Shown here one piece after another: positions 6,736-30,304 of a stretch of 64,000 bases of DNA; positions within the stretch are counted from its first letter, which is position 1; each line of letters starts with the position of its first letter. The notes under the pieces are model-generated. The model was not told the origin of the DNA, ran no database searches, and worked only from the letters and a program-made list of their open reading frames with translations. Source of the stretch: Escherichia coli (lineage in GTDB: Bacteria; Pseudomonadota; Gammaproteobacteria; Enterobacterales; Enterobacteriaceae); the NCBI RefSeq assembly GCF_024502345.1, contig NZ_JALDNN010000001.1. One strand, written 5' to 3'. Made by a program: the position numbers and the translations under genes.

Positions 6736-6812
<77 letters not shown>

Positions 6813-6844
6813 TCACCGTACTGCTTTATTTCATTAAATTTGAT

Positions 6845-6921
<77 letters not shown>

Positions 6922-6954
6922 TCACCGTACTGCTTTACTTCATCAAATTTTAAT

Positions 6955-7031
<77 letters not shown>

Positions 7032-8424: not shown

Positions 8425-8524
8425 TGCCGGATGCGGCGTGAACGCCTTATCCGGCCCACAAATCATGCAAATCCAAAATATTGCAGGAGTTATGTAGGCC
8501 TGATAAGCGTAGCGCATCAGGCAT
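8425..8524. repeat. BIME: two inverted REP (palindromic unit) elements
   Basis: gccggatgcggcgtgaacgccttatccggcc and gtaggcctgataagcgtagcgcatcaggc match the E. coli REP consensus. Confidence 0.8.
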
Positions 8525-11516: not shown

Positions 11517-11722
11517 AAAAAAAAGCACCGCAATTAGGCGGTGCTACATTAATCACTATGGACAGACAGGGTAAATGTACAGGAAGTGAAAAAAGGTAGC
11601 TTTGCTACCATGGTCTGAATCGCAGACCAATTGCAAACACAACAACACAACATCACAACCGTAAGCCAAAAGTTCACCAGAACACGCATTCCGATAAAAC
11701 TTTTCGTTCCGGCTCAGGAAGT
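11517..11722 (-). ncRNA. gcvB: GcvB small regulatory RNA (about 206 nt)
   Basis: Minus strand reads ACTTCCTGAGCCGGAACGAAAAG...GTTGTGATGTTGTGTTGTTGTGTTTGCAATTGG... and ends in a hairpin GCACCGCCTAATTGCGGTGC plus U-run; recognised as E. coli GcvB, divergent from gcvA. Confidence 0.9.
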
Positions 11723-23474: not shown

Positions 23475-24842
23475 TTAATCGCAGGCAACGATCTTCATTG
23501 CCAGGCCGCCGCGAGAGGTTTCGCGGTACTTGGCGTTCATATCTTTACCTGTTTCGTACATGGTTTCGATAACTTTATCGAGGCAGACGCGCGGCTCGCT
23601 GGTACGGCGCAGCGCCATACGTGCGGCGTTCACCGCTTTTACTGCCGCAATGGCGTTACGCTCGATGCATGGCACCTGTACCTGTCCGGCGACCGGGTCA
23701 CACGTCAGACCGAGGTTGTGCTCCATGGCGATTTCCGCCGCGATGCACACCTGCGCCGGGCTTGCACCTAACAGTTCTGCCAGACCAGCCGCCGCCATTG
23801 AGCACGCCACACCAACTTCACCCTGGCAACCCACTTCGGCACCAGAAATCGACGCGTTCATCTTATAAAGAGAACCAATGGCGCTGGCTACCAGCAGGTA
23901 ACGAGCCAGTGAGTTAGCGTTCACTTCGCGGATAAACTTATCGTAGTACGCCAGCACTGCCGGGATAATCCCGCACGCACCGTTAGTCGGCGCAGTCACC
24001 ACGCGACCGCCAGCAGCGTTCTCTTCGTTCACTGCCAGTGCAAACATGTTGATCCAGTCAACAACCGCCATCGGGTCAGTGGTGGTTTTATCCTGGCTGA
24101 CCAGCATCCGGCGTAGTGCCGCAGCACGGCGTGGAACACGCAGTTTGCCAGGTAACACACCTTCGGTGGAAATACCGCGCTCAATACCGCCACGCATCAC
24201 TTCCCAGACGTTCGCCAGGTGCTGTTCCAGCTCTTCTTTGCTGTGCAGCGCCAGCTCGTTTTTCATCATCAGGCCAGAGAGTGACAGCCCGGTTTCCTGA
24301 CAATGTTTTTGCAGATCGGCTGCTGAACTGTACGGATAAGGAACTTCAACCGGTGCGCTATCCTGCTGGCCAAAATGCTCTTCATCAACGATAAAGCCAC
24401 CGCCAATAGAGTAGTAAGTCTGACTGTAAACGACTTTATCACCCGCCAGCGCGGTAATGCGCATACCGTTTTCATGCAGAGAAAGGTTGTCGGCATGGAA
24501 GTTCATGCACTGATCAACCGGGAACTCCACTTCATGCTGACCGTTTGCCAGCATCAGGCGACCATGAGTATTCACATCCTGAATAAAACCGGGGATGGAA
24601 TCGATATCCACGGTATCCGGCAGGTTACCCGCCAGGCCCATAATAATGGCGATATCAGTGTGGTGGCCTTTACCAGTCAGAGAGAGCGAGCCGTACACGT
24701 CAACCACCACGCGGGTCACGTCTTTAAGCAGGTTACGGGCAATCAGATCGTCGGTAAATTGTTTACCCGCTTTCATTGGTCCAACGGTATGAGAACTGGA
24801 AGGGCCAATGCCGATTTTGAAAATATCGAATACGCTAATCAT
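23475..24842 (-). CDS. sdaB: L-serine dehydratase 2 SdaB (455 aa)
   Basis: 455-aa ORF recognised as an Fe-S L-serine dehydratase; downstream of sdaC. Confidence 0.92.
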   Translation of the reverse strand: MISVFDIFKIGIGPSSSHTVGPMKAGKQFTDDLIARNLLKDVTRVVVDVYGSLSLTGKGHHTDIAIIMGLAGNLPDTVDIDSIPGFIQDVNTHGRLMLANGQHEVEFPVDQCMNFHADNLSLHENGMRITALAGDKVVYSQTYYSIGGGFIVDEEHFGQQDSAPVEVPYPYSSAADLQKHCQETGLSLSGLMMKNELALHSKEELEQHLANVWEVMRGGIERGISTEGVLPGKLRVPRRAAALRRMLVSQDKTTTDPMAVVDWINMFALAVNEENAAGGRVVTAPTNGACGIIPAVLAYYDKFIREVNANSLARYLLVASAIGSLYKMNASISGAEVGCQGEVGVACSMAAAGLAELLGASPAQVCIAAEIAMEHNLGLTCDPVAGQVQVPCIERNAIAAVKAVNAARMALRRTSEPRVCLDKVIETMYETGKDMNAKYRETSRGGLAMKIVACD

Positions 24843-24899: not shown

Positions 24900-26189
24900 T
24901 TAGCTGAACAGAGAGTAGAAGATTGCAGAGATTGCAATCAGACCCATCACGACAACGAATACGTTGCTGATGTGACCGCTGTACTTACGCATTGCCGGTA
25001 CTTTCTGAATTGCGTACATCGGCATCAGGAACAGGATCATCGCGATGATTGGGCCGCCCAGGGTTTCAATCATACCCAGGATGCTCGGGTTCAGGGTGGC
25101 AACAATCCAGGTCGTTACCAGCATGAACAGCGCAGTGATACGGTTCAGCTTGTTGATTTCAATAGACTTACCTTTACCACGCAGAGATTTAATCACCATA
25201 CCGTTGAAGCCTTCACGTGCGCCCAGGTAGTGGCCGAGGAAGGATTTGGTGATAGCGATAATCGCGATAATCGGAGCCATCCACGCGATGATCGGCGCGT
25301 TAAAGTGGTTAGCCAGGTAAGACAGAATCGAGATGTTCTGCTCTTTAGCCGCAGCCAGGTCTGCCGGAGTCAGGCTCAGTACGCAGCTGAATACGAAGAA
25401 CATTACGGTCAGCACCATCATGATGTGTGCGAATGCCAGGATCTTCGAGCATTTCTGTTCTGCCATATCGCCGTACTCTTCACGCTTCGCAACGGCGAAA
25501 GAAGAGATGATCGGAGAGTGGTTGAACGAGAACACCATTACCGGAATTGCCAGCCACAGGGTCATCCACAGACCGTTTCCGGTTGCAGATGCAGTGTCCA
25601 GAGACAGCGTTTCCAGTGCTGCGCCGTTCCACTGCGGGATCAGGTACAGAGCCAGCAGCATCAGTACGCCAACAAACGGGAATACCAGAATACTCATCGC
25701 TTTAACGATCATCTGTTCACCAAAGCGAACGATGGTCATCATACCCACGATCAGGATCAGCGACAGAATCGCACGCGGCGGTGGCGTCATACCCAGCTGG
25801 TGAGACATGAAGCTTTCAACTGTATTGGTGATTGCCACGCTATAAACCAGCAGGATCGGGTAGATAGCGAAGAAGTAGAGCAGGGTAATCAGTTTACCTG
25901 CGCCAATACCAAAGTGTTCTTCTACAACCTCGGTGATGTCTTCGCCCGGGTTTTTACCAGACAGTACGAAGCGAGTCAGGCCGCGGTGAGCAAAAAACGT
26001 CATCGGGAACGCAAGGATAGCCATGATGATCAGCGGGATCATACCGCCAACACCGGCGTTGATTGGCAGGAACAGCACGCCCGCGCCGATTGCCGTGCCG
26101 TAAAGGCCCAGCATCCACATGGTGTCTGTCTTGCGCCAGGCACTACGAGAGTCTTTCGACGCAATCGTGCTGGTTTGAGTCGTTTCCAT
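24900..26189 (-). CDS. sdaC: Serine:H+ symporter SdaC (429 aa)
   Basis: 429-aa polytopic membrane ORF (HAAAP family). Confidence 0.92.
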
Positions 26190-26745
26190 CTATTTCTCCT
26201 GGAGGAATGCAAATAATTCAGCTTTTAGCCAGTTCAGCCCGGGAAGGTGCCTGACCGTAAAAATGAAATCTGTCTATCGGCGATGGCTTAATCATTTACC
26301 GCCGTAATAATTTGAGGGCGGAAAGATACACACAAGTTATGTATCTATCAGTGATCTTGATCCCAAATACAATAATCTACTTGGAAGATAGATTATCCCA
26401 ACGCTTTACTCTGTAAATCAAAAGTAAAAGAGAATTTAAGGGCAATATTTGCCCATTAAACGACATCTGACTTCTTCCTGGGCGCGCAATATATGTAGGT
26501 TGAACTGAAAAAATCAATACTTTTAGTTAATCATGGCGATAATTTCTTTTTCATAGCGATAAAATACGGTTTATGAAAATAGGGAAACGTTTCCGTTGCA
26601 ACATAAATTGTATGACATATTAACTGTGATGATGTTTATCATCTGAGGATGGTGAGAAACATTCATATAACAAATGAAAAAAAATGATGAGTAAGTGACC
26701 AAAAACGAGAAAACCCGGCAACAAACGTCACCGGGGGAGGGGAGA

Positions 26746-28110
26746 TTACGTGCAGATTTCGTAGCAAGGGATGTAGGCTGAGCCTGGCAACTTCATACGA
26801 TGCTGGGCAACAAAACCCTGTAGCAGGTCGTCCATACGACGCATAATCTCTTTATCGCCGTTGATTTTGTAAGGACCAAACTCTTCAATGGCGCGAATAC
26901 CGACTTCTTTTACGTTACCCGCCACAATACCGGAGAACGCACGGCGCAGGTCGGCAGCCAGCACTTCAACAGGTTGATCCGGGTAAAGCTTCAGATTAGC
27001 CATATTCTCGTGAGACGGCTCAAACGGCATTTGCAAATCTGGTGCAATGCGCATTGACCAGTTAAAGCTGTAAGCGTCACCGGTGTCGCGGCGATTTTCT
27101 TTCACCAGCGGCATCGATTTTTTCATCTGACGAGCGACTTCAGCGGCGTCATCAATGATGATGCGGTAATGGCGGCGCGCGTTTTCACCCAGCGTATGCA
27201 CGACAAACTCGTCCAGTACGCGGAAGTAGTCGGCGCTCTCTTTCGGGCCGGTGAGGATCAATGGTAAAACCTGATCTTTGTTGGCCGGGTTCATTAAAAT
27301 TCCCAGCAAATACAGCAACTCTTCTGCCGTACCCACACCGCCAGGGAAGATAATGATACCGTGAGCGATACGGACAAACGCTTCCAGACGTTTTTCGATA
27401 TCTGGCATGATGATCAATTCGTTGACCAGCGGGTTAGGCGGTTCAGCGGCGATAATCGACGGCTCTGTCATACCAATAAAACGACTGTCTTTGTAACGCT
27501 GCTGCGCGTGTCCGACCGCAGCACCTTTCATCGGCGCTTCCATCGCTCCCGGACCACAGCCGGTGCAGATATTCAGCTCACGCAGGCCCAGCTGGTTTCC
27601 GACGCGACGGGCATACAAATACTCATTTTCGTTAATTGAGTGACCGCCCCAGCAGACCACCATATTTGGCGCTTCACCCACATGCAGCGCGCGAGCGTTA
27701 CGCAAGATGGAAAAGACCAGGTTAGTGATGTGTACGGAGTTGTCGAGATTCAGGTTGGGAAAACGAACGATGTTATGGATTTGCCCGTAAACGAAGAGAA
27801 TGTCTCGCAGAACCGCGAACAAGTTGGCCTGCAAAGCGCGAATAATTCGCCCATCGACAAAAGCCTCTTCCGGGGGATTAATCAGTTCCAGCTTTACGCC
27901 GCGTTCACGGCGCAGGACGTTAATATCGAAATTTTCAAAACGAGACAGCAATTCTTTGCTGTTATCGGTCAAACTACCGGAGTTCAGTACGGCAAGTGAA
28001 CAGTTGCGAAACAGTTGATAGAGGTCGCTGCTGGCGGTGCGTTTAAGCATATCCACTTCCAGCTGCGACAACATATCCATGGAGCCAAGCGGGCTAATAT
28101 GTGTAATCAA
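26746..28110 (-). CDS. ppnN: Pyrimidine/purine nucleotide 5'-monophosphate nucleosidase PpnN (YgdH, LOG family, 454 aa)
   Basis: 454-aa ORF with LOG-family motif region (GGYGTMEEL-like [10 protein letters not shown]). Confidence 0.85.
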
Positions 28111-29894: not shown

Positions 29895-30259
29895 TCGACA
29901 GGGAGTCAGACAACGAAGTGAACATCAGGATGATGACACTTCTGCAGGACACACCAGGATGGTGTTTCAGGGAAAGGCTTCTGGATGAAGCGAAGAGGAT
30001 GACGCAGGACGCGTTAAAGGACACCTCCAGGATGGAGAATGAGAACCGGTCAGGATGATTCGGTGGGTCAGGAAGGCCAGGGACACTTCAGGATGAAGTA
30101 TCACATCGGGGTGGTGTGAGCAGGAAGCAATAGTTCAGGATGAACGATTGGCCGCAAGGCCAGAGGAAAAGTTGTCAAGGATGAGCAGGGAGCAACAAAA
30201 GTAGCTGGAATGCTGCGAAACGAACCGGGAGCGCTGTGAATACAGTGCTCCCTTTTTTT
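29895..30259 (+). ncRNA. csrB: CsrB regulatory RNA (CsrA-sequestering, multiple GGA motifs)
   Basis: About 365 nt with roughly 18 repeated CAGGA(U)G/AGGA motifs and a terminal hairpin GGGAGCGCTGTGAATACAGTGCTCCC plus U-run. Confidence 0.9.
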
Positions 30260-30304
30260 ATTCCTGCTATCCTTCGCGGCAGTTTTTCTTATTGAGGTTG
30301 CTTT

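Follow-up and report, generated by a model that had tools for sequence, protein, structure and literature searches.

The 556-bp region between ppnN and sdaC of Escherichia coli as a probable composite regulatory region for sdaCB

The 556-bp gap between ppnN and sdaC in an Escherichia coli chromosome is best explained as the composite regulatory region of sdaCB, an operon for the uptake and deamination of serine, with no separate gene inside it, a reading to which we assign a probability of about 0.85. In the direction of transcription the region would begin with the intrinsic terminator of ppnN, followed by an AT-rich upstream module carrying two sites for the activator YieP and a PurR operator, with a reported Lrp site lying further downstream. 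A distal sigma-70 promoter (P1), apparently specific to Escherichia and near relatives, would come next, and some 165 bp further on a CRP site and a -10 hexamer would constitute a class II promoter (P2) conserved across the Enterobacteriaceae. Transcription from P2 would yield an unstructured leader of about 126 nt, in which the ribosome binding site would be masked by the Hfq-dependent small RNA ArcZ. The sdaCB operon governs how serine is taken up and detoxified. Signals for carbon (CRP), purines (PurR), amino acids (Lrp), YieP and oxygen/ArcZ converge on its control region, which is largely already known and is an ordinary, densely regulated one. What is added here is a family-wide core, the proposed class II CRP promoter, distinct from the lineage-restricted distal promoter treated in recent E. 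coli papers.

The window referred to below is the whole stretch of DNA that was analysed (64,000 nucleotides), and the features discussed are listed in Table 1. The genes ppnN (28110..26746), sdaC (26189..24900), and sdaB (24842..23475) are co-directional, all on the minus strand, and the gap occupies positions 26190..26745. Its GC content is 37.2%, compared with 50.8% for the window, and is 30% in the segment 26520-26705. The longest open reading frames within it have 46, 43, and 34 codons, TTG starts predominate, and no frame is conserved. The first-pass annotation of this DNA had described an AT-rich gap of about 555 bp lacking a credible open reading frame, a description that holds; it had also judged the gap to exceed a minimal promoter, and a terminator, regulator sites, promoters, and a leader do all map inside it. 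Among the ~44 inter-feature gaps in 50 kb of K-12 annotation around this locus, the sdaC gap ranks second, the only larger one being that between ygcE and queE (1372 bp). The divergent fucA-fucP control region in the same window is about equal in length (546 bp versus 556 bp) and is likewise AT-rich, CRP-dependent, and served by several promoters and regulators, whereas the sdaC region is co-directional with its upstream gene and also houses the terminator of that gene.

Table 1. Positions of the elements described in the text; coordinates are those of the window unless a locus is named
Feature	Coordinates	Strand	Sequence and remarks
ppnN intrinsic terminator	26701..26735	-	hairpin CCCGGTGACGTTTGTTGCCGGG then T-tract; terminator scan
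YieP site 1	26661..26675	-	ATTTGTTATATGAAT; same as the K-12 site mutated in lacZ reporters (Freddolino 2021)
YieP site 2	26606..26620	-	ATATGTCATACAATT; same as the K-12 site under the IPOD-HR/ChIP-exo peak (Freddolino 2021)
PurR operator	26581..26596	-	ACGGAAACGTTTCCCT in the window; ACGCAAACGTTTCCCT in K-12
Distal sigma-70 promoter P1 (predicted)	26488..26517	-	TTGATT, 18-bp spacer, TATATT, discriminator GCGCGCC; promoter scan
Candidate 29-codon upstream ORF	26377..26466	-	MSFNGQILPLNSLLLLIYRVKRWDNLSSK; 5' end of P1 leader; unsupported
CRP site	26347..26368	-	ATTTGGGATCAAGATCACTGAT; core TGGGA-N6-TCACT; centre between 26358 and 26357
P2 -10-like hexamer	26323..26328	-	TATCTT; fixed spacing from CRP centre
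Inverted repeat	26299..26321	-	CCGCC-N13-GGCGG; overlaps predicted P2 discriminator and start
sdaC leader from P2 (predicted)	26190..26316	-	no conserved secondary structure
Shine-Dalgarno region, ArcZ pairing site	26191..26202	-	CCAGGAGAAATA; -13..-2 of sdaC
24-nt block of other genera	L045:2236-2259, L007:2236-2259, L016:2255-2278		aligned with window ~26457-26434

Species-representative genomes were scanned and yielded 80 loci of Enterobacteriaceae encoding SdaC (identity 87-100%). In 76 of these ppnN lies directly upstream of sdaC, with a gap of 436-648 bp. Because a long gap and the gene order are kept in 76 relatives, we regard the length as a conserved property of the family and not as a local accident. 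Counts out of 77 given below refer to the window and these 76 syntenic Enterobacteriaceae.

Of 5426 complete E. coli genomes, 5425 carry a match to a 661-nt query that covers the gap, with identities of 90-99%. The sdaCB control region of K-12 (ppnN/ygdH-sdaC; 2927673-2928228) is equal in length and about 98% identical over the 661-nt query. The alignment with K-12 MG1655 is free of indels within the gap, and K-12 coordinates correspond to 2954418 minus the window coordinate. Both YieP sites, the P1 hexamers, the TATCTT hexamer, and the ArcZ target are identical in the two sequences, whereas the PurR box has a C to G substitution at 26593 relative to K-12 and one CRP half-site reads TGGGA against TGAGA. 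Some 14 of the ~20 differences over the 661 aligned nt are concentrated on the flanks of YieP site 1 (26636-26690); the core of that site is unchanged.

The ppnN terminator has a 9-bp stem with six GC pairs followed by a T-tract, as is typical of intrinsic terminators, and its use is documented experimentally in K-12, where Term-seq places an RNA 3' end at 2927709 (window 26709), inside the T-tract (Adams 2021 supplement). The next same-strand 3' end is located 121 nt inside sdaC, and there are none from K-12 2927710 to 2928350, so that no premature end falls in the sdaC leader (Adams 2021). The ppnN 3' end (26708-26709, minus strand; K-12 2927709/2927710) is also present in a second table of Adams 2021, at ~2.2-fold and p ~8e-10. 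We take this to be the bicyclomycin-response table, and if it is, Rho restricts part of the read-through from ppnN towards sdaC.

The best conserved non-coding block in the gap (26380-26296) includes the CRP site, the core of which is found in all 77 loci. In the window it reads TGGGA-TCAAGA-TCACT, agreeing with TGTGA-N6-TCACA at 8 of 10 core positions as a CRP site should, and no second copy of the pattern occurs in the 64 kb, where the chance expectation is 0. In 76/77 loci a TAnnnT hexamer follows the CRP centre at exactly 30-35 nt, as TATCTT in 68, TACATT in five, and TATCGT in three. Given this spacing, the CRP centre would fall at -41.5 of P2, the geometry of class II activation, and P2 is predicted to be a class II CRP promoter starting near 26316, approximately 126 nt upstream of sdaC. 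Like the class II CRP-activated promoters galP1 and melAB, it has a CRP site 30-35 nt upstream of the -10 and no recognisable -35; unlike them, its -41.5 CRP position is deduced from the hexamer spacing, and it has no properly spaced extended -10 TG.

Published work describes sdaC as CRP-dependent (Hollands 2007, as cited), and the cAMP-independent mutants selected in a cya background, described below, fit such a dependence on cAMP-CRP. P2 would be the CRP-dependent promoter of the operon. The exact start sites at both P1 and P2, and hence the assignment of promoters and the lengths of leaders, are predictions. The inverted repeat at the predicted P2 start forms a hairpin that most genera keep with differing arms (the mean z of 58 unique sequences is -1.36), and this conserved element lies outside the promoter model, which counts against the composite control region as a complete account of the gap.

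Folding of the sdaC leader is unremarkable. Relative to shuffled sequences, the z-scores are +0.82 for a 157-nt leader and -1.48 for a 322-nt leader, and RNAalifold applied to 20 genera gave -0.56 kcal/mol with six trivial pairs, all outside the leader body, and no covariation. A weak hairpin, GGGCAA-ATA-TTGCCC, was considered as an attenuator and rejected, being uncalled by the terminator scan and having no Term-seq end. The first-pass annotation had also proposed an Rfam scan; at E <= 10 over 25900-27000 it returned nothing credible, only chance snoRNA-type matches below threshold, and at the gathering score there is no match inside the gap. Elsewhere in the window, gathering-level matches are CsrB (29903-30262, plus strand), GcvB (11517-11722, minus strand), three tandem tRNA genes (6739-7031, minus strand), and the small RNA ES036 (8459-8501, plus strand), all of which are expected in this part of the E. 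coli chromosome.

Regulation of the leader by ArcZ is described in the literature, in which ArcZ pairs at -13..-2 of sdaC and its overexpression lowers sdaC mRNA. The interaction is Hfq-dependent, as is that of ArcZ with STM3216, and the seed masks the Shine-Dalgarno sequence; the window does not differ from the published case. The K-12 ArcZ seed has the expected complementarity to the window sdaC, with a predicted energy of -15.3 kcal/mol over -23..-2, and the Shine-Dalgarno block is 89% conserved among the 77 loci. The earlier proposal of a long regulated 5' untranslated region therefore survives in part, in that the leader is at least ~126 nt long and carries an ArcZ target, while no structured riboswitch-like element is found in it.

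Two further pairings were considered and set aside. A second ArcZ-complementary stretch at 26468-26489 (minus strand), at the P1 start, has a predicted energy of -23.6 kcal/mol, stronger than that at the known target in the ribosome binding site, and about 2% of shuffled sequences match it. It is probably due to chance, as it lies partly upstream of the predicted P1 start and K-12 has a mismatch in the CCAGG core; the pairing needs the A of the window, where K-12 has C. Pairing of the GcvB R1 region with the sdaC leader is no better than with shuffled sequences, although the GcvB gene is inside the window.

The distal promoter P1 would start near 26481, judging from its hexamers, and would give sdaC a leader of approximately 290 nt. 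According to Frendorf 2024 no promoter of sdaC has been verified experimentally, and the start given in the annotation was predicted by computation. Insertions of +A at K-12 2927924 and +ATT at 2927928 in the sdaC region were repeatedly selected in a cya strain, and they raise sdaC reporter output in a cAMP-less strain and enable growth on serine. These positions correspond to 26494 and 26490 in the window, and the insertions are in or abutting the -10 hexamer of P1, where they act as promoter-up mutations. P1 is invariant in four Escherichia species, and a P1-like TTGnnn-N16-18-TAnnnT pattern is present at the corresponding interval in only 8/77 family members. Between P1 and the CRP site lies a third promoter-like sequence (TTGATT-18-GATAAT, preceded by a TG; 26392-26421, minus strand), which is not conserved outside Escherichia.

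We infer from these distributions an ancestral promoter under catabolite control, P2, and a cAMP-independent promoter restricted to one lineage, P1. P1 would provide CRP-independent, YieP-stimulated expression in rich medium, and P2 would provide catabolite-controlled expression. Such a division would account for the improvement of P1 in a cya strain, and also for the high expression of sdaC in glucose-rich defined medium; the YieP peak is strongest in that medium (Freddolino 2021).

An alternative, which we consider unlikely, is that the main sdaC transcript arises at P1 and that its ~290-nt leader is a regulatory RNA device, acting through a translated upstream open reading frame, Rho-dependent attenuation, or a structure that binds a ligand or protein. 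P1 is improvable by selection and unchanging in Escherichia, as this would have it, and the ppnN 3' end belongs to the presumed bicyclomycin-responsive ends; against this, the P1 pattern recurs in few relatives, and the leader has neither a Term-seq 3' end nor an Rfam match within it. The long leader does fold somewhat better than shuffled sequences, but its z of -1.48 is not significant, as 8 of 100 shuffles fold equally well.

The other attraction of a leader device is the 29-codon open reading frame at the 5' end of the P1 transcript, which opens ~15 nt downstream of the predicted transcription start and is preceded by a Shine-Dalgarno-like AGGAAGAAG. Two other Escherichia species keep the frame open, but in a third (locus L004) only two codons of it are left. 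The initial codons of the frame align, in other genera, with a block lacking any third-position excess. In 31 loci of other genera the block contains a 10-codon frame, M[VLI]AFAP.., which was rejected as coding, as it has no Shine-Dalgarno sequence and diversity across the three codon positions is flat (0.26/0.20/0.22); synonymous and nonsynonymous changes in the block (528:1142) do not follow a coding-type pattern. A 25-codon frame in the short leader (26295..26218) was likewise dismissed, as it occurs in Escherichia only and its changes, read off the alignments, look neutral. Neither the 29-codon nor the 25-codon frame is kept outside Escherichia.

Other genera have at the corresponding place a 24-nt block, (A/G)TGnTAGCCTTCGCGCCCnTAAAT, conserved in 55 of 73 non-Escherichia loci; in the five loci checked it precedes the CRP core by 91-92 nt. 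Escherichia has a small hairpin, GGGCAAATATTGCCC, instead. As a conserved sequence outside the proposed elements, the block is a second feature to which the composite control region assigns no role. That the ~290-nt P1 leader adds an unrecognised regulatory layer we regard as slightly less probable still than a leader device as the main route of expression. The Escherichia upstream frame, the 24-nt block of the other genera, and the covarying inverted repeat at P2 could belong to such a layer, and if so these features might couple YieP/PurR-driven transcription to occupancy of the CRP site or to translation-dependent read-through.

The first-pass annotation had also raised the possibility that the gap holds a small RNA or a small protein, and an independent gene on either strand is now very improbable. 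Length, AT-richness, and the presence of several frames of 25-46 codons are what such a gene would lead one to expect. However, Rfam is empty here at both permissive and gathering thresholds, the ppnN terminator is the sole terminator-like site, with no promoter-terminator pair beyond it and no internal Term-seq ends, and the plus strand is without promoter or terminator matches. The small frames in the gap are either not conserved or without a coding signature, the K-12 RefSeq record has no feature annotated inside the gap, and those small frames that were examined are not kept outside Escherichia. The blocks that are conserved are short and resemble binding sites.

Experimental evidence for the upstream part of that control region comes from studies in K-12. 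Freddolino 2021 used the sdaC promoter as a worked example and defined two YieP activator sites there by an IPOD-HR peak, DNA pulldown with mass spectrometry, EMSA, ChIP-exo, and lacZ reporters, which together establish both YieP binding and its effects on reporter expression. The same paper mentions an Lrp site in EcoCyc about 200 bp downstream of the IPOD-HR peak. In a different study deletion of yieP had no effect on sdaCB mRNA, a result that weighs against the composite scheme. Binding of PurR in vivo is recorded in Table 1 of Cho 2011, in which the ChIP-chip region 'sdaC-sdaB' is given with the motif AGGGAAACGTTTGCGT. The PurR box of the window agrees at 13 of 16 positions with the ideal palindrome (ACGCAAACGTTTGCGT-type, 16 bp with a central CG), as an operator would, and a GCAAACGTTTCC-type box is conserved at the aligned place in many genera (GCAAwCGwTTGC-type). 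The YieP and PurR sites precede the P1 start by 100-190 bp and P2 by some 270-350 bp, distances that are large for classical activation or repression and that weigh against the composite control region as we have drawn it.

The least credible reading is that the gap is mostly a non-functional AT-rich spacer, an insertion remnant or silenced DNA, with a minimal sdaC-proximal promoter sufficing; the 5' half (26745-26600) does align poorly between genera and varies in length, but a gap of 436-648 bp is retained in all 76 synteny-keeping relatives, there are conserved islands such as the PurR-type box, and the upstream sites bind proteins and affect reporters in experiments, including the published scrambling of YieP sites.

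The PurR box of the window is one base further from the PurR consensus than that of K-12, and PurR binding in the window strain might be weakened by the C to G change at 26593.
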